From the sequence record OR539220.1: a stretch of 64,000 bases of DNA; one strand, given 5' to 3'. The translations under genes and the position numbers were made by a program. Below are positions 1,177 to 20,144 of the stretch, one piece after another. Origin of the DNA: Escherichia phage vB-Eco-KMB40. The notes under the pieces were generated by a model that saw only the letters and a program-made list of their open reading frames with translations, did no database searches and had not been told where the DNA came from. How positions within the stretch are numbered: the first letter of the stretch is position 1; each line of letters begins with the position of its first letter.

Positions 1177-2192
1177 TGTGTTGCCTCTACATATAGCTGA
1201 TTTGCATATTGAATAAGTGCTTCGCGATCAGAATCAGTGATGTCTGGAATTGCATTAATGTATTCTTCCATCAACGTCTGAAGAGATTGAACTTCAACTT
1301 CTTCACTGTCATCTGACTCGACAGAGTTATCAATCTTTGACACAACTCGTAATGAATGCACAACTTTCTCTAGTTCAGATTCGAACTTCGTCAGATTTTT
1401 GTCTACTTCAGTTACTATAACACGTACTGATAGATTTGTAAAATCTTTATAGTCAATTTTTCCTTTAAATGGATAATGAATTCTACGATGCCAGGTAGTG
1501 TTGTTTGGAATAAATTCCATTCGTTCTGTTTCTGTATCAAACATCCAGAACCCACGAGGGTCATTCTCGTCACCGGCAGTTAGTGTCCATGGTGTCCCAA
1601 TATATCTGACGTTAGCAGCCTCAGAGATAGTATGGAAGTGACCAGACCACACCTCTTTATAAGTCTTAAGGAAATCAGGTTCAAGACCGTGAGATTTCAT
1701 TCCTTTATAAAAATAAAATCCATTCAGTTCCCAGTGACCAACACAAAAAGAAGCAGATGAAGTTTTGATGTGCTCAAGAATTTCACCAGTATTTTCTTCA
1801 CACATCCAAGGAATTAAATCAATTAAACATCCGTCAAAATCTACTGTAGTAGGCTTATCATATACTTTAACATTAGGATATTTAGCCAAAAGCTCAGTAG
1901 AGGCATTTGGAGTTAAAGTATTTTTAAAGTGCATATCATGGTTTCCTACAACAGTATGTAGGGTAATACCAGCATCATCAAGCATTTGAACTATTTCACG
2001 AGCGAACTCCATAGTTTTATGCGTGATTGCTTTTCGCACATCAAAAATATCGCCGTATTGAATCCATGTAGTAATTCCATTTTTCTTAGAATATTCTATT
2101 GCTTGTTTAATTCCATCCAACTGAATGGATTGAACCCACTCATCATCGGCTTTAACGCCTAAATGCCAATCACCTAAATTTAAAATTTTCAT
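1173..2192 (-). CDS. 47: recombination exonuclease subunit gp47 (Mre11/SbcD-like phosphoesterase)
   Basis: 339 aa; calcineurin-like phosphoesterase motifs (GDWHLG, GDIFD, GNHD, GHWE); length and N-terminus as in T4 gp47. Confidence 0.9.
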   Translation of the reverse strand: MKILNLGDWHLGVKADDEWVQSIQLDGIKQAIEYSKKNGITTWIQYGDIFDVRKAITHKTMEFAREIVQMLDDAGITLHTVVGNHDMHFKNTLTPNASTELLAKYPNVKVYDKPTTVDFDGCLIDLIPWMCEENTGEILEHIKTSSASFCVGHWELNGFYFYKGMKSHGLEPDFLKTYKEVWSGHFHTISEAANVRYIGTPWTLTAGDENDPRGFWMFDTETERMEFIPNNTTWHRRIHYPFKGKIDYKDFTNLSVRVIVTEVDKNLTKFESELEKVVHSLRVVSKIDNSVESDDSEEVEVQSLQTLMEEYINAIPDITDSDREALIQYANQLYVEATQ

Positions 2193-2353
2193 ATATCAAG
2201 AACCGTCATTGAAATGCAAAATAAAATTATTGAAATAAATCCATCTGGAGTGCTAAAGAACCCAATCCAACATGCTCTAGTGAATAGATAAAATGCGAGA
2301 AAAAGTATCACATATCCAAGAAATATCATTATATCAAACTCCGTATAAAGCTA

Positions 2354-2369
2354 AAGGGCCGAAGCCCTT
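2354..2369 (-). terminator. GC hairpin with TTCG loop (AAGGGC-TTCG-GCCCTT on minus strand) followed by U-rich tract
   Basis: Perfect inverted repeat at 3' end of a-gt, before gene 47. Confidence 0.4.
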
Positions 2370-3571
2370 TATTTTGTAATAATGTCAAACTGTTCTTTAA
2401 AGCAGAAGCTTGAATCTTGATGCTGATACAAAAATTCATAAGCTTTTTCGCGTTCGCGGTCATAAAGAGTTCGGTCAGATGACAGTTCTTTAATACGTTC
2501 AAATGTTGATTCCATGTCATTTTCATCAAACCAAATGATACCGCTATCATGCGAGGTCAAAGGAGTATTATCAACACGGAATTTTAAATTTTCGCCAGTA
2601 GATTTCCAAAATACCGGAATTGTTCCACATGCACCAAGCTCGAGATGAGTATATTCTAAAGAACGTTGTAGATATTTTTTATCCAACTTACTCAACTGAT
2701 AACCAAAACCGGATTTACTCATACGTTCAAGCATTTCGCTATTTACATAACGGTCAAGAATTTGCGTTGGCAAATTAGGAGCAATTTTAATTTGGTCTAC
2801 TTGATGAAGACGATAATACTCGTATGGAATTCCTTTTTCTTTAATAGGAATGAACGCTGGAGAACGTTCCAGACCTTCCATAATAGTACTTAGTCCTGCA
2901 GGTTTAAGATGTTTTTCATGAAAATCAAACATCTGATAAAAACCTTTCCATGTGGTCGTACGACCAATCCAACGGTTGATATTCATGTTAATTTCAGAAA
3001 CATCTTTCCAGTAGGTTGACCGAACCTTCGCAATATCCATAGGAGGCTGAAAGTTATATACTGTCGGTGCTTCTTCAATATCATCAAACAGAGAAACTGT
3101 TTCAGGATACCATTCTTTCATCAGAACTTTATTAAAATCACCATTATCAGAATGGCTAAAAATAACATCAGCTCGACGAACAGTTTCTTCTAATCCCAAA
3201 TTTCGACGCAAAGAAAGAGAAGAATGGTCATGTTGATAAACTACAACACGAACAGAAGGTTTAATGTTATCAATAATTTTTTTATAGTTATTAATAGTGT
3301 CTTCTTCAACCGAAGTAGCAGGAACTGAATTGATAATTAGAATATCACAATCATTTACCAGCTTAAGTGTTTTATCATATTCTTTTGCCAATAAAACCGG
3401 AATTGAAAATGATTTATAATCATGCGCGCAATTACGAGTAAATGATTTATCTTTAGCATAAACCAAAGTTACTTCATGACCATTCTTAATAAACCAATCA
3501 CGTTGCTCAAGAGAAAATTTAGTTACACCACAACCTTCAAGACCTCGAGCCATAAAAATACATACTTTCAT
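2369..3571 (-). CDS. a-gt: DNA alpha-glucosyltransferase (glucosylation of hydroxymethyl-cytosine DNA)
   Basis: 400 aa; N-terminus MKVCIFMARGLEGCGVTKFSLEQ and length match T4 alpha-gt as recalled; position between 47 and 55. Confidence 0.85.
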   Translation of the reverse strand: MKVCIFMARGLEGCGVTKFSLEQRDWFIKNGHEVTLVYAKDKSFTRNCAHDYKSFSIPVLLAKEYDKTLKLVNDCDILIINSVPATSVEEDTINNYKKIIDNIKPSVRVVVYQHDHSSLSLRRNLGLEETVRRADVIFSHSDNGDFNKVLMKEWYPETVSLFDDIEEAPTVYNFQPPMDIAKVRSTYWKDVSEINMNINRWIGRTTTWKGFYQMFDFHEKHLKPAGLSTIMEGLERSPAFIPIKEKGIPYEYYRLHQVDQIKIAPNLPTQILDRYVNSEMLERMSKSGFGYQLSKLDKKYLQRSLEYTHLELGACGTIPVFWKSTGENLKFRVDNTPLTSHDSGIIWFDENDMESTFERIKELSSDRTLYDREREKAYEFLYQHQDSSFCFKEQFDIITK

Positions 3572-3622
3572 TTAATATCCTCTTTGTTTTGGTTTATTTT
3601 ACCAAAAATTTATAAAGCAATA

Positions 3623-3640
3623 TAGGAGCCGAAGCTCCTA
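3623..3640 (-). terminator. terminator-like hairpin (TAGGAGC-TTCG-GCTCCTA on minus strand)
   Basis: Perfect inverted repeat upstream of a-gt; U-rich tract follows after a few nt. Confidence 0.35.
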
Positions 3641-3829
3641 TCCACATAATACGCCATACAGAGGCTCGTTAGAACTTTTAAATTTTATGCGCTTATATTT
3701 TATAGTTCCTTCTGCTTTAGCTTTATCATGAGACTCTTTAAAGCGTCTCATCATTTCCTCTTGAGAGGAACGAATTTTATTATAATCTATTTCAGAAGTC
3801 TGGTGTTCATCTTTCATAACTGCCACCAT
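3638..3829 (-). CDS. hypothetical small protein (63 aa)
   Basis: ORF track; member of overlapping minus-strand gene chain between 55 and a-gt. Confidence 0.4.
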   Translation of the reverse strand: MVAVMKDEHQTSEIDYNKIRSSQEEMMRRFKESHDKAKAEGTIKYKRIKFKSSNEPLYGVLCG

Positions 3830-4020
3830 TTTTTGACTTGATAAGAATCAACCCACACTTTCATATTGGGGTCTGCTCTTACAATAGGAGGATTAACTTC
3901 TTTAATTGAACTATCATGGTATTCTTTTTCAGAAATTTTCACACAAAGATGACCATTCAAAGATTCAGTAAATCCTGCATTAATTTTAAGACGCTTGAAT
4001 TTTACGTGTGTAAGCATCAA
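3814..4020 (-). CDS. hypothetical small protein (68 aa)
   Basis: ORF track; gene chain. Confidence 0.4.
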   Translation of the reverse strand: MMLTHVKFKRLKINAGFTESLNGHLCVKISEKEYHDSSIKEVNPPIVRADPNMKVWVDSYQVKKWWQL

Positions 4021-4303
4021 TCATATCCTCAATCTGCGATCTAGTAGTCTTCCAAAGAATACTGATGAGTTCATCGTTATATGGCTGTTTCAGAATATCC
4101 CGACTTTTCTTGATAGCATATTCGTATTGAGCAAAATTATTATTTTCAGCTGCAATCTGAGCGTGCTTATAAAGACGATTCAGTTCGCGTTTGTTTTTAG
4201 ACAATAACTTATTTGCTTTTCTTTCTGCTTCAAGACGGTTCTTTTCTTCAATAGAAGAAATAAGCTTTTCCACTTCATCATTAATTTCGGGTTTATCAGT
4301 CAT
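3986..4303 (-). CDS. hypothetical protein (105 aa), charged coiled-coil-like
   Basis: ORF track; gene chain. Confidence 0.45.
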   Translation of the reverse strand: MTDKPEINDEVEKLISSIEEKNRLEAERKANKLLSKNKRELNRLYKHAQIAAENNNFAQYEYAIKKSRDILKQPYNDELISILWKTTRSQIEDMIDAYTRKIQAS

Positions 4304-4304
4304 A

Positions 4305-4523
4305 TTATTTCTCTAATATAAAATAAAAATCATCATCTGTTAAATGATACCGATAGTTTAATTCTACACCATTAGATTTAAAAGCGGTATCATACGGATT
4401 TTCTGGATCAATATCAATGTCAAGAGCTAAAACTTCCCTGAGATACATTTTAAGTAAATAGGGAATAGCTTCAACTTCAGGTATTTCTTCCAAGAATCCG
4501 GAGAGGTTAATCGTTAGCCTCAT
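4305..4523 (-). CDS. hypothetical small protein (72 aa)
   Basis: ORF track; directly downstream of gene 55. Confidence 0.45.
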
Positions 4524-5064
4524 ATAAAAAATCCAAACTAGGAGAATCGTCTACAACACTTTTCTTTTCAGCCCCCGGTGTTCTATAGGTTGATTCTTCG
4601 TAATGCGTCATTTTATCGTAGATGTCTTGAATAAAAGTTTCATCTACTAACGCAACCATATCGTCGTCACGACTGTCATAGACATTGTGAACGAAGTAAC
4701 TATATTTCTTTGCAACTTCCTTACGTTCTTTTTTAATACGTTGGACGAATGCATTAAAACAAGCTTGAGTTATATACGCATGTGGGTTTTTATATTTCGT
4801 TTCATCAAAATTATGAAGCCCCTTAATAGAAGCTTCTATACCATCTGCAATCATTTCTTGTTTCCAAGACTGGGTGTATCCTGAAAAGTTGAAACGTTTA
4901 GATAAGCCTTCTGCAATAAGCATAATGGCTAATCCGATAGTATCATTCTGACGAACTACTTTATTTGGGTCTTTATTATTTGCTAATTCTGTTTTCCAAT
5001 CAATAATAGCCTGTAAAAGCTCTTTATTGTTTACGTAATTATATTTAGGCTTAGTTTCTGACAT
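4507..5064 (-). CDS. 55: late-transcription sigma factor gp55
   Basis: 185 aa from ATG at 5064 (track start is an upstream GTG); GAGGTG SD; length and position as T4 gp55. Confidence 0.85.
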
Positions 5065-5144
5065 TTTCACCTCTTAGCTCAATTCATAGATCTATTATAT
5101 CATAATATTTGAAGATCTATCTTAAAGCATAGAGGATGAATCAG

Positions 5145-5414
5145 TTATCTAAGTAAACAGTATGCTTGGAACACTTTCTCCATCATCTTTTTAAATTCAT
5201 GAATATCTATATAATGACTAGTTAAATCAGCATGATATAAAAAGTCTAAAAACTTTTCATGTGTGCTAACATATTCACTTTCATTTAATTCAGAAACATG
5301 ACTTTCCCAATATCCAACACCAGTCTTATTTGGGAAAAATGAAATTTTCATATATTGGTCAACATAGAAAATGCCATAATTTTCAATAGTAATAGAAATA
5401 TTAATAAATTTCAT
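5145..5414 (-). CDS. hypothetical protein (89 aa)
   Basis: ORF track; gene chain between nrdH and 55. Confidence 0.4.
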   Translation of the reverse strand: MKFINISITIENYGIFYVDQYMKISFFPNKTGVGYWESHVSELNESEYVSTHEKFLDFLYHADLTSHYIDIHEFKKMMEKVFQAYCLLR

Positions 5415-5632
5415 ACATTCATCAACTTAGCCGCTTCGAGAGCTGCATCTATTGAATCAAATTGGTCAACATATTCAATCAATTCGCCGTAATTAGCATA
5501 TAACCACCATTGGCTAAATTCATACTCAAGGATGAATCCGTTTCCTTCAATTTGAGTTAAACCAATGCCATTTGTATTTACTTCATACCCAGCAAGACGC
5601 AAATCGTTAATAAGAGCTTCGTTCATATTCAT
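5411..5632 (-). CDS. hypothetical protein (73 aa)
   Basis: ORF track; ATGA start/stop overlap with neighbours. Confidence 0.4.
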   Translation of the reverse strand: MNMNEALINDLRLAGYEVNTNGIGLTQIEGNGFILEYEFSQWWLYANYGELIEYVDQFDSIDAALEAAKLMNV

Positions 5633-5955
5633 ACCTTAGTAATTTTCAGGTCTGCAAATTTTTTCTTGCGTTGATTTTTCATGCGACGAATAGTCTTATC
5701 GGAAATTTCACGCTTTTGATAAGCTTTAGATTCTACACCGAAAGCTTTAACATCAAATTCTGACAAGATATATTGAACCAACAATTCACGGACAGTATTG
5801 CGTCCAATCTTCTGATCATTCTGTTTCATCGTCTGATGAAGCTCTTTTTCCCATTTATCCAAAATTTGAGGAGTTACAATATCGCCTTTTTCTAACAAAG
5901 AAACTACTTTATCATATGCGTAAGAATTGATGGCGTTTTTAATTTGAATAGTCAT
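5629..5955 (-). CDS. hypothetical protein (108 aa), basic C-terminus
   Basis: ORF track; gene chain. Confidence 0.4.
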   Translation of the reverse strand: MTIQIKNAINSYAYDKVVSLLEKGDIVTPQILDKWEKELHQTMKQNDQKIGRNTVRELLVQYILSEFDVKAFGVESKAYQKREISDKTIRRMKNQRKKKFADLKITKV

Positions 5956-5990
5956 ACATTATCCTCAATTACGTTAAAATTTTATTATCC

Positions 5991-6009
5991 AAAAAGGGCC
6001 GAAGCCCTT
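5991..6009 (-). terminator. intrinsic terminator (AGGGC-TTCG-GCCCT hairpin plus T-run on minus strand)
   Basis: Perfect GC hairpin followed by TTTTT on the transcribed strand, just 3' of ORF 6008..6208. Confidence 0.55.
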
Positions 6010-6208
6010 AGCTAAACTTTTTGGCACCCTTCCAGCCTTCGTACATCATTGCGACTGACAATGACAAAGCTCCTTCACATGCTGCATACTTATTATTCCA
6101 GAACCAATTTAGAAAAACTTCATCCTCAATACCATTGTGTTTCATGTTCTGGAAAAATTTGGCGCGTTCTTCAGCAATTCGCTGTGATAATTTAGATTCA
6201 GGATTCAT
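6008..6208 (-). CDS. hypothetical small protein (66 aa)
   Basis: ORF track. Confidence 0.4.
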   Translation of the reverse strand: MNPESKLSQRIAEERAKFFQNMKHNGIEDEVFLNWFWNNKYAACEGALSLSVAMMYEGWKGAKKFS

Positions 6209-6425
6209 TTAAATTTTTCCAGTTACCGTTTTCATCAATAAATTTAATCCAGTCATTTACTGACCACTTGGTCGTATCGCCTTTTGGAGTAACATTTAAA
6301 GTGTATAACCCTTGTTTAAAAAGCATTCGTTTGATATTCATATTTTCCTCAGCTGTAACGATAACACTCGTTTGATTTACGTTTAGCAACTCGTTGAGAA
6401 ATATTATAATCAAAATCATCATCAA
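6198..6425 (-). CDS. hypothetical small protein (true start possibly internal ATG near 6344)
   Basis: ORF track; N-terminal part overlaps upstream ORF. Confidence 0.3.
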   Translation of the reverse strand: MMMILIIIFLNELLNVNQTSVIVTAEENMNIKRMLFKQGLYTLNVTPKGDTTKWSVNDWIKFIDENGNWKNLNES

Positions 6426-12001: not shown

Positions 12002-12244
12002 TTATTCCTTAATTCCTAGTACTTGTTTAAAAGTCTCGTCGTAATCAAGACTTTGACCCGTTTGTTCTTTATGTTTGTATATAATATCACTTACTTCTGA
12101 TAGCATATTTTTATATGAACGAGTTAAAGCAGATTTAAGCACGCTGTATCTATAAGGAAATTTACCATGTTCATTATAATAAGCTATTGCTAATTCACGG
12201 ACTGCCTTTTCAGCAGCCTCCATATATTCTTTACGCTTGGTCAT
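12002..12244 (-). CDS. hypothetical protein (80 aa)
   Basis: ORF track. Confidence 0.4.
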
Positions 12245-12246
12245 TT

Positions 12247-12636
12247 TTAATCCAAAATATTATTAGGCATTGGTTGAACACTCACAAGTTCTTTAAAGAA
12301 CTCAGTAGAGTCAGGCAATTTAACCATTTCCGGAGCATGCTTACTGAATTTATGTTTACATTGACGGCATTTATATTCAAGCTCTGGTTTACGCCAGTTA
12401 ATCAATTGAACTTGTTCAGTACCGCATTCAGGGCAATTAGGAACGTTTTTAGAAGCTCTTTCACGTCGTTCAACCATAGCCATAATAGCATCCCATGCTG
12501 GAGGTTTAAAATCTAAATCGTCGCAGCCGTGAATCTTTCCACGCATTTCCATATCATCTTCCTCACCAGCCATAATAATTTTAATTAGACTAGAATTACT
12601 TGAAGCTGCAATGTCTTCTAATAAACGCTTTTTCAT
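12247..12636 (-). CDS. hypothetical protein with C-terminal zinc ribbon (129 aa)
   Basis: CPECG...CRQCKH four-Cys motif. Confidence 0.45.
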
Positions 12637-13562
12637 TTCAATACCTCAATAGCATTACGTAAACCATTTGCTTTGGCGGTTAAAGCCTTAAGAACTTTAG
12701 TATGCTCTTCAATTTGTTTTTCAACTTCAGCCAAACGGGCATTGAGATATTCACGTTCTTCACTCAGATTATCAACCTTTTCTACTTTAGGCTCTTTTAC
12801 AACTGTCTTATATGTATTAGGGTTCTTCAGTTTAATTAGAATGCGTGAACTGTATAACATTGAACCATTATCTTCGGTTTCGTCATACATTTCCACTACG
12901 TCCATAATTTTTAACATCATGCGGAGTTTATAAGACAACGAACGAATAGTTTTGTTGTGCTTATTAATTTCTTTAGCTGTCATGGCGCCAAGATTACGTG
13001 AGTAATAATAAGGAACCTGGATATTAATTAATACTGATGAACCACCTGGCTTGTGTGTTACTTCATCAGCAATAACCCAGTCCTTAACATGAACTGTATT
13101 TGTACGGTCATCGCCTGCAGTAAACAGCTTGCGAGCATGCTTAAAAAGCATATTCACTTGGTCATTGAATTGACAAGCAAATTTATCAGCAAATTTAGTT
13201 TCAGGAATGGTAGATAACCAATCAGCCAAATGGGTCTTTTTAACATCGTTAACAATAGTAAATTCAACCAAATCAGTTATAGATGTCGCAGATTTAATGA
13301 AGCTCGGCTTCATAAAGTTTTTAATGTTATCACGAGCTACAGTAGAAGATAACATACGAGAACGTTTAAACCATTCAAGCAAATTGCCTAACGAATGAGA
13401 ATAAGCGTTTTGAGTATCTTTACAGATATGATTTTCCTGACCAACATATTGAAGGAAATCACGAAGAATATTATTGATTACTGCTCTGTGCCCGATCTGA
13501 TAATTACGGTGTTTAGTAATAAGACTGTCAAAATAATCAATATAATGTTTACGAGTTTTCAT
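12633..13562 (-). CDS. hypothetical protein (309 aa) with C-terminal coiled coil; first of four similar tandem genes
   Basis: ORF track; N-terminus MKTRK; C-terminal ~45 aa heptad-like segment. Confidence 0.5.
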   Translation of the reverse strand: MKTRKHYIDYFDSLITKHRNYQIGHRAVINNILRDFLQYVGQENHICKDTQNAYSHSLGNLLEWFKRSRMLSSTVARDNIKNFMKPSFIKSATSITDLVEFTIVNDVKKTHLADWLSTIPETKFADKFACQFNDQVNMLFKHARKLFTAGDDRTNTVHVKDWVIADEVTHKPGGSSVLINIQVPYYYSRNLGAMTAKEINKHNKTIRSLSYKLRMMLKIMDVVEMYDETEDNGSMLYSSRILIKLKNPNTYKTVVKEPKVEKVDNLSEEREYLNARLAEVEKQIEEHTKVLKALTAKANGLRNAIEVLK

Positions 13563-13614
13563 GTTCTTCTCACTTGGTTAATGATTTATACTCCGAGCCA
13601 TCCTTGGCTTTAAA

Positions 13615-14613
13615 TTACTTAATTAACTGTAAAGCTTGTTCCAGACGATCCAAGCGATTGACAGATTCTTCCCAAATCTTTTTAGCCTGCTCATATTCTT
13701 TCTGCGCTTTATTAGAAATTTCTAGAACTTCTTTATAAGCTTTTTCTAGTGCAATAACTTCTGGACGAATTTCTACCGGTTCAGGTGAATCATCAAGATT
13801 ATCCATTAGTTCCTCAAGGGTAGTTTCTTCTTTAGGAGTATTCACAATTTCATCACATTTTTGTTGATAAATTTCTTTATCAGTAGGTGAGTACGCGCAC
13901 TTTACTTCACGAAGACTAATTACAATTTTATATCCTTCCCATCCGCATATATTCTTAAAAGGATATGTATGAATATTTTCTACTGTTTCCATACAAAGTA
14001 ATGCAGTCTCTAACTGACGAGTTATAGTGCTAGCAATTGAGAAAAATTTATTAATATTCTTTTGGTTAGCGTTTGGTGTAAAAAATCCATAATTCACAAA
14101 AATAGCTACTTTATTTTCATCAAGCTCATATTCTTTTACGATAATCATATCAGAAGCCAAAGGATGAATTTGACGATAATCGCCATAACATAATTTAGAA
14201 GCTGATTTTAGAATTTGTCCTTTGAAAAGTCTGAAATTACTAATCCAACGACGAGTAAAAATATTCTCAGGGTCTTCTTTATTAAGATGATAAGAATTAA
14301 CATCACCAAACCAATTATATCCTACTACATCTTTAGTTCGTTTAATTTCTTTCCCAAATTTACTAAGAATATCTCTGTTGACTAAGTATGAAAGAAGACG
14401 AGACCCTTTAAAGGTTTTCTTAATGTCATCTTTATCTGTACGACTAGAAATTTCACGAACTTCATGAATAAATTTACTGGAAGAAACAATACTTGCATCA
14501 ATACTGCTGAGCCATTGATTGATAATAGAAAGAACAGCGTTCTGACTAGACATGGGTTTAACTTTATCATCAATAACGCTATTGAATGATTTGATATATT
14601 CGTTACGAGTCAT
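13615..14613 (-). CDS. hypothetical protein (332 aa from ATG at 14613) with C-terminal coiled coil
   Basis: Track ORF extends into promoter; GAGGAG SD before MTRNEY start; own early promoter. Confidence 0.5.
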   Translation of the reverse strand: MTRNEYIKSFNSVIDDKVKPMSSQNAVLSIINQWLSSIDASIVSSSKFIHEVREISSRTDKDDIKKTFKGSRLLSYLVNRDILSKFGKEIKRTKDVVGYNWFGDVNSYHLNKEDPENIFTRRWISNFRLFKGQILKSASKLCYGDYRQIHPLASDMIIVKEYELDENKVAIFVNYGFFTPNANQKNINKFFSIASTITRQLETALLCMETVENIHTYPFKNICGWEGYKIVISLREVKCAYSPTDKEIYQQKCDEIVNTPKEETTLEELMDNLDDSPEPVEIRPEVIALEKAYKEVLEISNKAQKEYEQAKKIWEESVNRLDRLEQALQLIK

Positions 14614-14641
14614 ATTAATCTCCTCAGTAGAAAGTAAGAAC

Positions 14642-14671
14642 ATTATACCACATCCTTGTGGTAAAGTAAAC
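14642..14671 (-). promoter_or_regulatory. T4-type early promoter (-35 GTTTACT, -10 TATAAT)
   Basis: Minus strand AGTTTACT-N17-TATAAT upstream of 13615..14613. Confidence 0.6.
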
Positions 14672-15690
14672 TAGTTTAGTGCGTTTAGTGCGTTGTTCAG
14701 TTTAGAACGTTGCTTCGTGAGATTTTTGACTTTTTCTTGTGCTTTTTCTAGCATCTTTTCAGCTTCTAACACTTCATTGGTCGCTTTAACGAGTTCATCA
14801 TCTACTGCCTTAAGGGACTTCTCAATCGCATCCGCGTGCCATTTTTCAACAGGTTTAAGACTCGGATTTTCAGTAGGAAGAAAATTCACTTTATTAAATT
14901 TCCATGCATCTTTATTACCTGAGCTATACATCCAAAATTTAGGATCGTTTGATGAGCAATTAGATAAATTTAAGTTATCTTGCACTTCCTGCTTTTTCTC
15001 TTGTATAACTTCGTCCTTTCTCAAAAAATCGTATTTAAATGAAACGATCATATCAAGTTCATACGTTGTTGTGTCTAATTTAAATCGTTCAAAACGAGGT
15101 AAAATCTTAGATTGAACAGCGGCAACAACATCCATATACTTAAATGCTTCTGTCAACTGTGATTTAAGGCATTCACAAATTGAAAGAGAATTTTTTGTAT
15201 TAGGTTTAAAGCTAATTCGTGCAGTTCTATTATTTTCTTTTAATGGTCTTACTTCCATCTGAAGAGTATAACCATCAAATTTCAGGTTCTTTAAGTTAAT
15301 GTCAGAACCTTTTAATCGACTAGCTGTCGACAAAATTTGCTTTAATTGTTTACGGAATAGAGCAATAAATCTCCATTCAAGACGGTAATGATTTGGATTA
15401 AAAAATCCTGTTGATAAATCAACCTTACTCTGACCAACGCCTTGAACAAATAGAGGATTTTTATAATCAATAGTTTTACAGAAATCGGTGAGCTGTTCAC
15501 GAGCAGTCATTTGCGTAATATATCCAGCTTTATCAAAATGTCGCAACCATTCACTGCTATTCATATACTTAAAGTGAATGGAACTATTAACTCTATCAGG
15601 GTCTAAATTATTTTGGCACAAAAATGTCATAACATTACGGGTATAGCTGGCATTACGAACCATATCTTCAATTTGAGAACGAGTTTTCAT
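14671..15690 (-). CDS. hypothetical protein (339 aa) with C-terminal coiled coil
   Basis: ORF track; N-terminus MKTRS resembles 12633..13562. Confidence 0.5.
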   Translation of the reverse strand: MKTRSQIEDMVRNASYTRNVMTFLCQNNLDPDRVNSSIHFKYMNSSEWLRHFDKAGYITQMTAREQLTDFCKTIDYKNPLFVQGVGQSKVDLSTGFFNPNHYRLEWRFIALFRKQLKQILSTASRLKGSDINLKNLKFDGYTLQMEVRPLKENNRTARISFKPNTKNSLSICECLKSQLTEAFKYMDVVAAVQSKILPRFERFKLDTTTYELDMIVSFKYDFLRKDEVIQEKKQEVQDNLNLSNCSSNDPKFWMYSSGNKDAWKFNKVNFLPTENPSLKPVEKWHADAIEKSLKAVDDELVKATNEVLEAEKMLEKAQEKVKNLTKQRSKLNNALNALN

Positions 15691-15698
15691 GGTATTCC

Positions 15699-16586
15699 TT
15701 AAGATTTAAGTAAATCAACAATTTTAATTAACTTTTCACGCTCAGATTTAGCTTTACTACTCAATCCAGATAGTCTAAAGATTTCATCGTCATATTGTTG
15801 AATAGAAATATTCAGCTCTTCAATTTGCTTATTAAAATAATCAATTTGCTCAGAATGTTTTTCGTTACTACGAACTGGTACAGGTTTTGTAGGCAATTTA
15901 GTTGAACTGGATTCATCCGGGCGATAAATTAAAATACAACTTGAACCAATTGGACATTTTGCACCAGATGAATATTCTAATGTTCCAGATTCTTTTAAAA
16001 CTTCAAAAGCTAAACAGAGATGATGACCCATATTGACATAATCAGTAGAGCGAGCTCTGATGTAATAATCATCTCCACGAGTACTAAATTTAAAGCATTT
16101 AAGGTCTTCTGTATTATTGGTCTTAAAAATCATTTGTTTATCTAGACCTTTAGCTAATCGAGCGCCTAATGCTAATAATCGTCGTTGATTTTCCCACAAA
16201 TATGCAATCATTTGGTCAAATGATAATTTTGGCATTAGTCGACCATAAAGGTCATATCCTTTATTATAATTACGAAGAATTTCACTCGCATTAATACGAG
16301 ACAATGCTCCAATTTTATTAAGGGCTTTCATGATGCGATTAGATAAACTCATTCCAGATCCGTTTGTTCGCTGTAAATGTTTTTCTAATCCAAATCCAAT
16401 ATCAACTTTAAATTTATCTAAAATTTCAGCATGAACATCTCTGTCAATAACATTCAAATCCAAAGTTGGGTTAAATCTATGAAAAAATTTATCTGGCTCT
16501 CCACGACGAAGTACAGTCCATTCATTCAATTTTTTATTAACTAAAGATTTAATTACTGTATTGACATTATTAATTACTACTGACAT
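15699..16586 (-). CDS. hypothetical protein (295 aa from ATG at 16586) with C-terminal coiled coil
   Basis: GAGGAAAAT SD before MSVVINN start. Confidence 0.5.
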   Translation of the reverse strand: MSVVINNVNTVIKSLVNKKLNEWTVLRRGEPDKFFHRFNPTLDLNVIDRDVHAEILDKFKVDIGFGLEKHLQRTNGSGMSLSNRIMKALNKIGALSRINASEILRNYNKGYDLYGRLMPKLSFDQMIAYLWENQRRLLALGARLAKGLDKQMIFKTNNTEDLKCFKFSTRGDDYYIRARSTDYVNMGHHLCLAFEVLKESGTLEYSSGAKCPIGSSCILIYRPDESSSTKLPTKPVPVRSNEKHSEQIDYFNKQIEELNISIQQYDDEIFRLSGLSSKAKSEREKLIKIVDLLKS

Positions 16587-16593
16587 ATTTTCC

Positions 16594-17001
16594 TCACTCA
16601 ATTTCAATTTTACTAAATACACAGAATATGATGGAAAAGACTATATAAGCACCGCATACAGATTGAACTAATACCATTCCAAAGAACCAAACGATATTAT
16701 CAAACAATGTCTGTTTTACGTCGAAAGGACGTAAACTTACAGTAATATTATCACCTTTTTCTATTGAAGAATACATCTCTGGGGAAATATATTCACTAAA
16801 TCTATAACCGTCTTTGAGTTCATATACGGCAATAAACGATAAACTAGACCCCTTTCCTTGAGTTCCTGTAAGGGTATTAACTACAGTAACATCATAATCT
16901 TTATAATGCATATAATCATTAATAGCATAATAACCATATGCAACTACTATACATAAACAACATATCAATAAATTCAATCTTTTAATTATCAACTGTTTCA
17001 T
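16594..17001 (-). CDS. membrane protein (135 aa; N- and C-terminal hydrophobic segments)
   Basis: ORF track; LLICCLCIVVAYGYY and IVWFFGMVLVQSVCGAYIVFSIIFCVF. Confidence 0.5.
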   Translation of the reverse strand: MKQLIIKRLNLLICCLCIVVAYGYYAINDYMHYKDYDVTVVNTLTGTQGKGSSLSFIAVYELKDGYRFSEYISPEMYSSIEKGDNITVSLRPFDVKQTLFDNIVWFFGMVLVQSVCGAYIVFSIIFCVFSKIEIE

Positions 17002-17056
17002 AATAATCTCAATTAAAAGGGCTTAGAACCATTATACCATCCTTGGTATAAAGCGG

Positions 17057-17584
17057 TTATGCGAGTACCGTCTTTAACCGTTCTTCAAACTTCCGAAGAG
17101 TATTTTGGCGTTCAGCTCTTTGCTTTTTGTAAGTTTCAATACGCTCTGAAATGAGAGTGTATCGTTCATTTACTGATTCTTTCATAAAATCAGGAATTTC
17201 ACGAGAAGCTTTAATCTCATCAAATTTATCAATAACAGCTTGCTCTTCAGCAATTAAGTTATCATACATTAAAATATCTTTCTTGATGAACTCAATATCT
17301 TCTTGAGTTACACGAGATAATTTAGATGCTTTATCCTTTTTGTACTGTTCGTTAGTATCACGAGACCAGTGTAATGTACGATTTTTATTCGTATTTTTGT
17401 AAATTTCTACAATACCAATTTCATCAATAATAACGATCCAATTCCAACGGGATTTGTAAATTTGTCCTCCATCAACAGTGATTTCACCTCCGATTGAGAT
17501 GTCATTAAAGAACTTGCTTTGTGCTTCAGATTTAAATTTACCATCGTTGTAATTTACCAGGTTGAAAATATCTTTAGCATTCAT
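17057..17584 (-). CDS. hypothetical protein (175 aa from ATG at 17584)
   Basis: Track ORF N-terminal extension is translation of the promoter; GGAGGAACAC SD before MNAKDIF. Confidence 0.5.
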   Translation of the reverse strand: MNAKDIFNLVNYNDGKFKSEAQSKFFNDISIGGEITVDGGQIYKSRWNWIVIIDEIGIVEIYKNTNKNRTLHWSRDTNEQYKKDKASKLSRVTQEDIEFIKKDILMYDNLIAEEQAVIDKFDEIKASREIPDFMKESVNERYTLISERIETYKKQRAERQNTLRKFEERLKTVLA

Positions 17585-17611
17585 TTTGTGTTCCTCCGTA
17601 GTTGATAGTTG

Positions 17612-17641
17612 TATAGTACCACAGAGGAACAGTCTTGTAAA
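17612..17641 (-). promoter_or_regulatory. T4-type early promoter (-35 GTTTACA, -10 TACTAT)
   Basis: Repeat element gttgatagttgtatagtac (plus strand) shared with promoters at 19052, 22868 and 34516. Confidence 0.6.
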
Positions 17642-17644
17642 CAA

Positions 17645-17959
17645 CTAAAAGAAACTTCTTTCACAATTTTTTCCACTAAACCATGCGCTGACCGCTTTCT
17701 TAGTCTCAGGAGCAGTGTTATCCATAAACCATTCAAAGGCAGCCTTTTTATGATTCTGGAGGGCTTCTCGGGCTTTAATCTGCTCACGGTCTATTAACAC
17801 TAACATATGAGCCTTTCTTGTCACCAAGGGCTTCTTATGATTTTTTGAATACTCCCAATCATTTGTCCATCGCATCGTTGTTGCGAACTGAAATACTGCT
17901 TCTTTAATTTTAGTTTCGTAAATTTCACGAGCCTTTGAGTATAACATCATTACCTCCAT
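17645..17959 (-). CDS. hypothetical protein (104 aa)
   Basis: ORF track; GGAGG SD. Confidence 0.45.
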   Translation of the reverse strand: MEVMMLYSKAREIYETKIKEAVFQFATTMRWTNDWEYSKNHKKPLVTRKAHMLVLIDREQIKAREALQNHKKAAFEWFMDNTAPETKKAVSAWFSGKNCERSFF

Positions 17960-18048
17960 TTACCAGTTTAATTCTAGTCATCTTTTTAATGGCAGTCCAT
18001 ATAATCTATTTCTGAACTGCCTTTTTGTCATAGAAGGCCTCTTATGAA

Positions 18049-19017
18049 TTATTTCAGAAGAGTAACCTCAGCAATTTCTTCCCAACCGTTTTTGTCGGTC
18101 ATAATAAAGTCAGCAAGATAAAGTGCAGTACGCAGTGAAACATTGCGTAAACGATTAACATTGACTTTCATCCATGATAATGCTTTATAAGTTTCTTCAT
18201 CAGAAAGACCGCGTTTTTGCATCATGTCAGTTGAAAGAATAACATCTTCAACCCTGACCATAATTTCTTCATTAGTGTGAACACCCAAATCCAAATAAAC
18301 TGAGCGGGAAACTAATGCTTGTAAATGTGGAGCAAGTTTAGTACCACGGTCTAATTCGCGGTCAATGTCAACGTTTGTGATAAAAACAATCGTTCCTTTA
18401 AATTCAAACTCACGCTCAATGCCTTTTTCTTCTAAGTAAGAAGATGCGGTGCTCCAGCAGACTTTACGGGTCTCTCCGGTGTCCAGAGCAGCTTTCAGAA
18501 GATTAAGAATGTCCATATCAGAGAAAACATCCACATCATCAATCAAAAGGACAGAATTCTCTTCACGATTATTCCAAAGCTGTTCATAAAGACCGATACC
18601 AGAGATTTTACCATTAATGCTTTTATATTCGATGTATCCAATATCATTTGCTTTATTTAAAGCTTTATCTAAAGAATACGTTTTACCAATACCTGCTGCT
18701 CCAGAGATAATTAATGAACGAATGTTTCCGTTAATAATACCATTCGTCATCATTCCCATAACATTAAATCTTTTATTAATGCGGGTTTTCATATCTTCAT
18801 ACGATTCTTTAACTTCTTCAACTTTTACACCATCATATGAAATGTCTGATTTGTAAACCCAAACACCGCGACGCTTACCGTCAATTTCAACAAAAACTTT
18901 ACCATCTCCTTGTGCATCTACCGGAGCATTATCTGGGAACCATTCACCTAAGAGCTCAAAAGTTCCAGAGATTTCTTTACCGAAGTAGATACCCTTATTG
19001 ATAGTTACAGTTTTCAT
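18049..19017 (-). CDS. P-loop NTPase (AAA-like) of unknown function (322 aa from ATG at 19017)
   Basis: Walker A SGAAGIGKT and Walker B VLLIDDVD; own early promoter. Confidence 0.6.
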   Translation of the reverse strand: MKTVTINKGIYFGKEISGTFELLGEWFPDNAPVDAQGDGKVFVEIDGKRRGVWVYKSDISYDGVKVEEVKESYEDMKTRINKRFNVMGMMTNGIINGNIRSLIISGAAGIGKTYSLDKALNKANDIGYIEYKSINGKISGIGLYEQLWNNREENSVLLIDDVDVFSDMDILNLLKAALDTGETRKVCWSTASSYLEEKGIEREFEFKGTIVFITNVDIDRELDRGTKLAPHLQALVSRSVYLDLGVHTNEEIMVRVEDVILSTDMMQKRGLSDEETYKALSWMKVNVNRLRNVSLRTALYLADFIMTDKNGWEEIAEVTLLK

Positions 19018-19101: not shown

Positions 19102-19128
19102 AAATAAAAAGGGAGCCCGAAGGCTCCC
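19102..19128 (-). terminator. intrinsic terminator (GGGAGCC-TTCG-GGCTCCC plus TTTTTATTT on minus strand)
   Basis: Perfect 7-bp GC stem with tetraloop directly after nucleotidyltransferase stop. Confidence 0.6.
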
Positions 19129-19130
19129 TA

Positions 19131-20144
19131 TCATTTATAATAACTTCGGTGGTTTTCAAGATAGACCTTCTCAAGGAAGTCATCCCAGAAACTCATGTCT
19201 ACTTTTTGCTGCATACCGTTCTTAGAAGCTTCAGTAGATGCTGCTTCTACTTGATCGACCACATCTTCCAAAAACTCTTGAACTGTTTTAAATGGATGTT
19301 TACCCAACTTCACGTCGAGAATAAATGGAGCATCTTGGAGTGGATAAACCAAGTCACCAGTTTTGTAAATTTCCAATAGTTGGAGTCCACCACGACAAGC
19401 ATGACTCAGAGCTTTCCAGTCAATGCCTTCATTAGCTTCGGCTTTACGAGCACGTTCACCATATTCAGCATCTAATTTATTCAGTGACTGCTTAAGCTCA
19501 ATAAGAGAAAGTGTTGTCTGATATTTACGACCCAACACAGTGTAGAACGTTTGCGGGCCTGTTTTCTCGTGATTATGGAACACCCATTCACAGAATTCGT
19601 TTTCTGGAAGACGATGCTTAATATCTTCAACTTTAGTGCGACGCTGCTTAATAGAACCATCTTCTTGGTAATCAACCCATTGCTCGGGGATTTGATTAAC
19701 TACTTTCAATACATCACGTAATGCAGCCAAACGAGAACCCTTGACACCGTATTTAGAAGCTTGCTTGCGAACATATCCTAAATAGGATTTCATGTTAGTT
19801 GTATAAAAACGAGAACGGTTGTCTTGAATAAACTTCCACACATCAGGCAAATCAGATTTAACCACTAGTTCAGGTGGAGTGTGAAGCATATCCAATGCTA
19901 CAGTTTCACCATCTGCTGCTAATTTAAAGAAATATTTAAGACTGTATAGTTCATGGTCAATATCATCTTTAGTGTTTTTAGATGATGTGTTGTTAGTGTT
20001 TTTACTCATGTGCTCTTTGACATTTCCGATAAGAATATCACGAGCAGGAGGAACAAAAATTTCTTTAAAATCTACATCAGATTCTGGGGTAGAAGTTCCA
20101 TAAAGATGACTACCAAAATAGCTTTTCATTACTGTTTTCATCAT
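19131..20144 (-). CDS. nucleotidyltransferase-fold protein (Pol-beta superfamily), 337 aa
   Basis: N-terminal motif GSHLYGTSTPESDVDF (G-S...D-x-D) and downstream acidic ALDMLH; helical C-terminal region. Confidence 0.55.
   Translation of the reverse strand: MMKTVMKSYFGSHLYGTSTPESDVDFKEIFVPPARDILIGNVKEHMSKNTNNTSSKNTKDDIDHELYSLKYFFKLAADGETVALDMLHTPPELVVKSDLPDVWKFIQDNRSRFYTTNMKSYLGYVRKQASKYGVKGSRLAALRDVLKVVNQIPEQWVDYQEDGSIKQRRTKVEDIKHRLPENEFCEWVFHNHEKTGPQTFYTVLGRKYQTTLSLIELKQSLNKLDAEYGERARKAEANEGIDWKALSHACRGGLQLLEIYKTGDLVYPLQDAPFILDVKLGKHPFKTVQEFLEDVVDQVEAASTEASKNGMQQKVDMSFWDDFLEKVYLENHRSYYK

Follow-up and report, generated by a model that had tools for sequence, protein, structure and literature searches.

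Four divergent paralogues with coiled-coil tails in the nrdC.3 to nrdC.6 region of T4-like phages, including a gene that counteracts Dsr1 and three candidate anti-defence genes

Phage T4 is the best-studied virulent phage, and roughly half of its genes are still without a function. Here we describe four consecutive genes in a 64-kb stretch of DNA from Escherichia phage vB-Eco-KMB40 (sequence record OR539220.1; this whole stretch is called the window below), which is a Tequatrovirus (T4-like) genome. Gene names in the records of phages T2 and RB69 identify the four open reading frames (ORFs), all on the minus strand and 295 to 339 amino acids (aa) long, as nrdC.3, nrdC.4, nrdC.5 and nrdC.6. The 3,990-nt region that holds them matches 659 phage records, with Escherichia phage NiC89 at the top (97% identity, megablast). 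It was already known that these genes are ORFs of T4 and that one of them has a published anti-defence role; new here are one superfamily uniting the four, their architecture of head, linker and coiled coil, and three candidate anti-defence genes. The locus holds the following features:

12633 to 13562, minus strand: nrdC.3, 309 aa, head, linker and coiled-coil tail; the paralogue closest to nrdC.2
12636 to 12782, minus strand: coiled-coil tail of nrdC.3, aa 261 to 309, seven heptads
13615 to 14613, minus strand: nrdC.4, 332 aa, sister paralogue of nrdC.3
13618 to 13764, minus strand: coiled-coil tail of nrdC.4, aa 284 to 332
14642 to 14670, minus strand: site resembling a T4 early promoter, GTTTAC-N17-TGGTATAAT, directly 5' of nrdC.4
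14671 to 15690, minus strand: nrdC.5, 339 aa, orthologue of the T4 gene that counteracts Dsr1
14674 to 14820, minus strand: coiled-coil tail of nrdC.5, aa 291 to 339
15699 to 16586, minus strand: nrdC.6, 295 aa, the most divergent paralogue
15702 to 15863, minus strand: coiled-coil tail of nrdC.6, aa 242 to 295, two helices with a kink at SGLS

All four ORFs lie where a preliminary description of this DNA, made from the sequence alone, had placed them. Three of the proteins begin as stated there with M(K)TR (MKTR, MTR and MKTR) and the fourth with MSVV, and the 29-residue peptide quoted as an example is the C-terminus of NrdC.3. The array is flanked by nrdC.2, which encodes a zinc-ribbon protein, and by nrdC.7, a predicted membrane protein according to the T2 and RB69 annotations. 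Spacing between nrdC.7, nrdC.6 and nrdC.5 is 7 to 8 nt, gaps of 57 nt and 52 nt precede nrdC.4 and nrdC.3, respectively, and the stop codon of nrdC.3 overlaps the start of nrdC.2 by 4 nt. The site 5' of nrdC.4 agrees with 10 of 12 positions of a pattern that we take to be the T4 early-promoter consensus, and carries a TG extension. Because the ATG of a longer nrdC.4 ORF would fall within the -10 box of this site, the ATG at 14613, which has GAGGAG 7 nt ahead of it, is favoured as the start codon, as the preliminary description had assumed.

Among the four proteins, BLASTP is significant for the pair NrdC.3 and NrdC.4 alone (E 4e-7, N-terminal 220 residues). Profile comparison reaches further. 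In a first pass, nrdC.3 matched nrdC.4 at 98% and nrdC.4 matched nrdC.5 at 86 to 90%, and the weak matches of nrdC.6 were mutually consistent in register. These matches centre on three collinear motifs of the head (SRxLSxxxARDxLxxF, [IL]Lxx[AG][SA][RK]L and a helix with ALxxMxxV), which MAFFT aligns, together with a C-terminal motif, in the same register in all four families. When 1.84 billion representative proteins were searched exhaustively by profile, no more than 29 matched, and the family is therefore very narrow by sequence. Bridging sequences connect its branches: the metagenomic protein P0241 matches the unenriched hidden Markov models (HMMs) of nrdC.5 (1e-9), nrdC.6 (4e-6), nrdC.4 (4e-5) and nrdC.3 (1e-4), and P0235, P0238 and P0246 match nrdC.6 (~1e-16) as well as nrdC.4 and nrdC.5 (~1e-5). 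With such sequences added to their best-matching family, the enriched profiles aligned by hhalign in five of the six pairs with probabilities of 86.7 to 99.3% and E-values of 4e-6 to 3e-20. The pair nrdC.3-nrdC.4 reached 99.3% (E 3e-20) and nrdC.4-nrdC.5 97.7% (E 1.5e-12, extending to the last residue of both), followed by nrdC.5-nrdC.6 (96.8%), nrdC.4-nrdC.6 (95.5%) and nrdC.3-nrdC.5 (86.7%).

Structure models agree with this picture. AlphaFold2 (AF2) monomer models of NrdC.4 and NrdC.6, each built on the alignment of its own family, contain the same elements in the same order, namely a helical bundle, a helix-helix-short helix unit, a hairpin, a long helix, a second hairpin, a linker and a terminal helix, with one extra beta insertion in the NrdC.4 model. 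In Foldseek, the NrdC.4 model matches NrdC.6 of phage JS10 (E 1e-4), and six outgroup proteins, all uncharacterised and 300 to 370 aa long, are common to both models; they come from T4-like phages of Enterobacter, Pectobacterium, Klebsiella, Acinetobacter, Yersinia and Serratia. Taking profile comparison, bridging sequences and structure models together, all four proteins are paralogues of one superfamily. The check put forward in the preliminary description, a pairwise and profile alignment, thus found mutual similarity beyond composition, and the family relationship that it had proposed stands on hhalign, P0241 and the AF2 and Foldseek comparisons.

Existing databases distribute these proteins over separate entries. 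NrdC.5 matches DUF7235 (PF23882) over the whole model (1-307/307; E 1.2e-120, 403 bits against a cutoff of 30), and no DUF7235 match was found for NrdC.3, NrdC.4 or NrdC.6 at E<=1 in the Pfam scan; these three relate to DUF7235 only at the level of profile-profile comparison or structure. In precomputed Pfam assignments, PF26897 falls on NrdC.4 homologues and PF26899 on NrdC.6 homologues. PHROGs unites NrdC.3 and NrdC.4 in one family, phrog_1435, which both match across its full 334 positions (E 1.6e-115 and 3.8e-167, respectively), and keeps NrdC.5 and NrdC.6 each apart, the latter in phrog_2257 (E 8.9e-152). The weak Pfam and NCBIfam matches of the four proteins (PHL, Phage_int_SAM_1, Prefoldin, DUF3905, tyrosine recombinase, PgrA) lie far under the curated cutoffs and were set aside, save as a minor point for one rival reading below, and sequence matches in the PDB, to de novo designed helical repeats and weak coiled coils, were set aside as compositional artefacts.

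The label 'thioredoxin', which hundreds of GenBank records attach to homologues of nrdC.1 to nrdC.10 (equivalent to 12002 to 19017 of the window), is wrong for the four genes. None of the four proteins contains a CxxC motif, and none matches a thioredoxin or glutaredoxin family in Pfam or NCBIfam. The label appears to have been copied from the gene names nrdC.N.

The most conspicuous common trait of the four proteins is their C-terminus. The preliminary description had given each a heptad-rich end of about 45 residues; the measured length is close to this, since each protein closes with seven uninterrupted heptads over 49 residues. Hydrophobic residues occupy 86 to 93% of the a and d positions, against 17 to 26% of the others, with at most one proline or glycine per tail, and shuffling gives p<=0.0005 for each tail. 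For NrdC.3 the figures are 86% against 23% (p<0.0005) and for NrdC.5 93% against 17%, with zero proline or glycine (p<0.0005); NrdC.4 and NrdC.6 have p=0.0005. When the 92 non-overlapping ORFs of the window are ranked by C-terminal heptad score, the four proteins occupy ranks 1 to 4, NrdC.5 being the best, and four consecutive genes would fill the top four places by chance with a probability of ~89/C(92,4), or ~3e-5. The heptad register counted from the C-terminus is identical in all four tails, which also have in common the terminal motif L-x-x-[AI]-[ILV]-x-[VAL]-[LI]-[KN]. The models of NrdC.4 and NrdC.6 predict a terminal helix as well: for NrdC.4 (mean pLDDT 84.1) a single helix at 284 to 331 after a disordered linker at 260 to 282, for NrdC.6 (mean pLDDT 78.2) helices at 242 to 271 and 276 to 294 preceded by a low-confidence linker. 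Altogether, each protein exceeds the four unbroken heptads with hydrophobic a and d positions that we asked of a coiled coil, and the two that were modelled also have the predicted helix. Part of the NrdC.4 tail, RLDRLE, resembles what we take to be the R-h-x-x-h-E trimerisation motif, reportedly described by Kammerer et al. in 2005, and we offer this as a lead only.

Tail homology in the strict sense is another matter. Within orthologue groups the tail is better conserved than the remainder of the protein: NrdC.3 is 91% identical to T2 in the tail as against 56% elsewhere, and in divergent homologues the tail of NrdC.4 is 60% conserved against 46% for the head and that of NrdC.6 64% against 39%. 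Between paralogues, leave-one-out tail HMMs never recovered the omitted family, and homology carried by the tail alone was rejected, with tail-only hhalign at E>=0.002 and HMMs blind to the other families. As judged from the alignments, most of the homology that can be detected belongs to the heads, and the tails share just their register and the terminal motif. The preliminary description had seen a shared tail beneath divergent heads; the coiled-coil tails hold, but it is the heads that carry the homology. According to tail and family HMMs, no other ORF of the window has the tail or the head. Two candidates for further members were dismissed: nrdC.8 (17057 to 17587) gives no match to the tail HMM or to the family HMMs, and the ORF at 1173 to 2192 (339 aa), which has an internal heptad stretch, is an unrelated nuclease subunit of the Metallophos/gp47 type. 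The C-terminus of NrdC.8 (…QRAERQNTLRKFEERLKTVLA) is helical-looking with a weak heptad periodicity (p=0.03).

The duplications that gave rise to the array are ancient, because the copies no longer resemble each other at the nucleotide level: a blastn search of the window with the region detects no such similarity, and the repeats that link the genes measure just 17 to 26 nt, a size expected by chance. This lack of DNA similarity, together with three-copy arrays that are common to four genera, shows that the array was not recently amplified; recent amplification or gene conversion, which would leave DNA-level repeats, is ruled out, and with it that part of the tandem amplification proposed in the preliminary description. 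The start codons of nrdC.3 and nrdC.5 (13551 to 13569 and 15679 to 15697) lie in a common 19-nt stretch, 89% identical (…CATGAAAACTCGT, encoding MKTR), which is the sole nucleotide-level echo among the paralogues.

The family is restricted to T4-like phages (Straboviridae), where its syntenic position is kept across two subfamilies and the gene order nrdC.6, nrdC.5, nrdC.4, (nrdC.3), nrdC.2 is conserved. Each of the four genes has ~500 to 700 orthologues. The comparison of copy numbers across T4-like genomes, suggested in the preliminary description, gave one to four depending on the genus: four copies in Tequatrovirus and three each in Dhakavirus (JS10), Gaprivervirus (VR26) and RB69 (Mosigvirus). 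Kanagawavirus (IME523) and Jiaodavirus (K65PH164), which represent the T4-like phages of Klebsiella and Enterobacter, have one copy each, which sits in the syntenic slot, carries a heptad tail and is recognised by three of the four family HMMs. In Acinetobacter phage Acj61 the interval from nrdC to nrdC.10 holds two neighbouring genes, p120 and p121, of the same lengths as the two Foldseek matches, and p120 has borderline profile support (E 3.5e-5). About 30 kb from these nrdC.3-6-like genes, the Acj61 stretch at 1229 to 3938 holds adjacent genes for nicotinamide phosphoribosyltransferase and ribose-phosphate pyrophosphokinase, a pair that resembles an NAD+ reconstitution pathway.

Deletions are frequent, and natural isolates have lost, broken or fused members of the array. 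Phage Pinarejo retains nothing but a scar of nrdC.6, and ACG-C40 retains nrdC.6 and, beyond it, out-of-frame remnants only. The T2 record NC_054931 has nrdC.4 and nrdC.6 each split into two ORFs by a frameshift (3318 to 4281 and 5405 to 6241), with nrdC.3 and nrdC.5 intact. Salmonella phage Manna (stretch 3215 to 4252) encodes Manna_094, an intact, in-frame chimera of 345 aa that joins residues 1 to ~268 of NrdC.6 to residues 250 to 332 of NrdC.4 at a common DEI tripeptide; nrdC.5 and the head of nrdC.4 are deleted. A second apparent recombinant, P0120, was considered as the result of homologous exchange and is actually an out-of-register deletion product joining the middle of NrdC.5 to NrdC.3. 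In P0122 of Shigella phage Sf25 (378 aa), a NrdC.6 homologue, ~83 residues are tandemly duplicated (IRAHSTDYVNMGHH…QIEEL occurs twice), a stretch that reaches from the end of the head into the beginning of the tail. RB69 nrdC.5 (stretch 4380 to 5470, minus strand) is annotated as 300 aa without a tail; the tail (…LSVELDKAQAKLRDAQSVVTNLQLQYSKLFNAMNALKS, then stop) follows just downstream in another frame, which points to a 1-nt indel, whether genuine or due to a sequencing error.

The four genes also change much faster than their neighbours. Identity to JS10 is 26 to 48% for the four as against 69 to 85% for the flanking genes, and pairwise dN/dS is 0.10 to 0.41 as against ~0 for nrdC.8 and nrdC.10; these values lead us to reject gene-wide positive selection. 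Within Tequatrovirus, the alleles of nrdC.3 are deeply split (~95% and ~61% identity), and compared with T2 the window's nrdC.3 is a mosaic, in which a central block of ~630 nt (12780 to 13409) has 47 to 71% nucleotide identity and the two ends 84 to 99%. The word 'diversifying' in the preliminary description is therefore apt for the rates and the mosaic alleles, but not in the sense of a dN/dS above 1. Directly 3' of nrdC.3 lies a second hypervariable gene, nrdC.2 (12247 to 12636; 129 aa, with a zinc-ribbon-like CxxC…CxxC region), the 3' third of which has just 11 to 58% nucleotide identity to T2; the protein is 65 aa long in T2 and 73 to 101 aa in other genera.

What these proteins do is indicated by one of them. 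A T4 clone whose deletion covers nrdC.5 fails to plate on E. coli ECOR17, and equally on MG1655 supplied with the ECOR17 gene dsr1 (PMC9391042), and plasmid-expressed nrdC.5 restores plating of the deletion clone in the face of Dsr1 (Srikant, Guegler and Laub, eLife 2022, PMC9391042). The third gene of the window is the orthologue of T4 nrdC.5, with a full-length DUF7235, the same gene order and position, and 92.4% identity over aa 1 to 330. The published work on NrdC.5 concerns this complementation phenotype, without domain architecture, coiled-coil tail or paralogy, and, as described above, nrdC.3, nrdC.4 and nrdC.6 are filed elsewhere. The literature that we searched contained nothing on the function of those three. 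Two neighbours in the same island are likewise directed at defence systems: gp49.2 inhibits OLD (PMC13096335) and nrdC.1 inhibits Septu (bioRxiv 10.1101/2025.11.20.689424). They resemble the array in being phage-specific, previously uncharacterised proteins of the early accessory stretch that runs from gene 49 to nrdC.11, and gp49.2 and nrdC.1 are each shown to inhibit a single defence system; they differ in being 68 to 80 aa long, sequence-unrelated, single-copy and free of a coiled-coil tail. The four genes fit this company, as they are variably present, dispensable and fast-evolving and adjoin anti-defence genes.

The closest functional analogy to NrdC.5 is DSAD1 of an SPbeta-type phage, which blocks the SIR2-domain, NAD+-depleting protein DSR2 by binding. 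The target of DSAD1 is DSR2, whereas NrdC.5 counteracts Dsr1, and the chains of the DSR2-DSAD1 complex were not matched by the superfamily profile in a search of all PDB chains at E<=1. To our knowledge, neither a tandem array of paralogues nor a coiled-coil tail has been reported for DSAD1.

We consider it most likely, with a probability of roughly 60%, that the four genes form an array whose products are oligomeric, non-enzymatic inhibitors that act on host defences by binding. The array would be transcribed early, so that the proteins would be made early in infection. Each protein is built from four parts, beginning with an N-terminal helical bundle and an alpha/beta subdomain of the order hairpin, long helix, hairpin; a disordered linker of ~15 to 25 residues then leads to a C-terminal amphipathic helix of ~49 residues. 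The heads could supply the specificity for different host defence proteins, the coiled-coil tail could oligomerise the protein and thereby confer avidity for defence proteins that are themselves oligomeric, and the flexible linker would part the head from the oligomerising tail. NrdC.5 may act on the sirtuin NADase Dsr1 by direct binding, and NrdC.3, NrdC.4 and NrdC.6 may neutralise other defence targets; we infer these targets, and regard the three genes as good candidates for further counter-defence factors. The counter-defence role proposed in the preliminary description accordingly has experimental backing for one member, next to neighbours that inhibit OLD and Septu, and its interpretation as a whole is supported in essence, with the corrections given above.

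Several points weigh against the proposed array of binding inhibitors. Only one of the four genes has a phenotype, the NrdC.5 of this window is not the tested T4 allele itself but 92% identical to it, and the literature searched did not reveal by which mechanism, direct or indirect, NrdC.5 works. Oligomerisation by the tails is presumed, the AF2 models being monomers, and the charges at the e and g positions (scores of -2 to +2) show no pattern of homo- versus hetero-pairing. The enriched profiles hinge on our own assignment of bridging sequences to families, and the pair nrdC.3-nrdC.6 is weak by itself (58%, E 1e-4), albeit collinear over 194 columns. Pairwise gene-wide dN/dS is below 1 everywhere, and an arms-race signature is not demonstrated. 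Finally, the heads of NrdC.3, NrdC.5 and NrdC.6 are strongly basic (net charge +12, +10 and +12), which would fit the binding of nucleic acids too.

This last point leads to the foremost competing explanation, which we hold to be unlikely, though less so than those that follow: the proteins might bind DNA, RNA or the nucleoid, or act as host-takeover factors, and the effect on Dsr1 would then be indirect, through suppression of its activating signal. Besides the basic heads, residues 30 to 86 of NrdC.3 resemble, below the threshold, the SAM-like DNA-binding domain at the N-terminus of tyrosine recombinases (PF02899, E 0.066; NCBIfam PRK00283, E 0.0016, 17.8 bits against a cutoff of 279), and the published evidence on NrdC.5 is purely genetic (PMC9391042). 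Slightly less probable in our estimation is that the tails dock the paralogues on one common partner or on each other, which would produce a complex of mixed heads. The same heptad register and terminal motif in four tails, the greater conservation of tails than of heads within orthologue groups, the intact ORF of the natural chimera of NrdC.6 head and NrdC.4 tail, and the tight spacing of nrdC.7, nrdC.6 and nrdC.5 would suit such an arrangement. The tails of different paralogues are, however, not significantly similar, which speaks against a single common partner; genera with a single copy retain the tail, which must therefore work without partner paralogues, and nrdC.5, supplied in trans on its own, suffices for complementation in a phage that lacks part of the region. 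Nor do the e and g charges reveal any preference.

The heads might also be mimics. In such a case the alpha/beta subdomain would imitate a fold like that of phage tail terminators or tail tubes, which we regard as improbable; to an equally small degree we credit the further notion that these early-made heads, bundled by their tails, saturate host immune sensors of late virion proteins, such as DSR2 with its recognition of a tail tube protein, before the real trigger appears, with each paralogue directed at a different sensor. We know of no description of this principle, early decoys of late antigens, for T4. Tail terminator and completion proteins (lambda gpU, T5 p142 and SPP1 gp17-like) score too low for a claim of homology, and the nrdC proteins differ from them by an extra N-terminal helical bundle, the coiled-coil tail, their place in an early-gene region and their dispensability. 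That four unrelated AT-rich phage ORFs simply happen to end in charged helices is the least credible reading and is already refuted. It could appeal to the initial BLASTP, significant for one pair only, and to the tail-only profiles that do not detect the other families; against it stand the collinear head alignments, with E-values of 1e-8 to 1e-20, the bridging sequences, the agreement of independent structure models, the conserved synteny and the ranks of the four tails among the ORFs of the window.

The locus is of interest on several counts. Three separately filed families (DUF7235, PF26897 and PF26899) merge into one superfamily, and this superfamily is tied to a member with a known anti-defence phenotype. 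Four T4 genes become testable, three of them as concrete candidate inhibitors of E. coli defences that are still to be identified, and the tail of NrdC.5 offers a handle on how Dsr1 is blocked. The natural series of one to four copies, mosaic alleles and chimeras of heads and tails provides material on how counter-defence genes diversify, and hundreds of database records carry a 'thioredoxin' label now shown to be wrong for these genes.

A few further features of the window and the compared records may be mentioned. Blastn of the region against the window returned itself alone, without a second copy, and most of the 25 listed records (H1 to H25) match the 3,990-nt query at two places. Between nrdC.10 and a nucleotidyltransferase gene resembling nrdC.11 (19131 to 20144, RlaP family) lies a perfect, GC-rich hairpin of 8 bp (19110 to 19129, AGGGAGCC-TTCG-GGCTCCCT), with a T-run behind it on the minus strand, which resembles a terminator inside the early region. 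The GC skew of the window flips near 42 kb, from negative before this point to positive after it.

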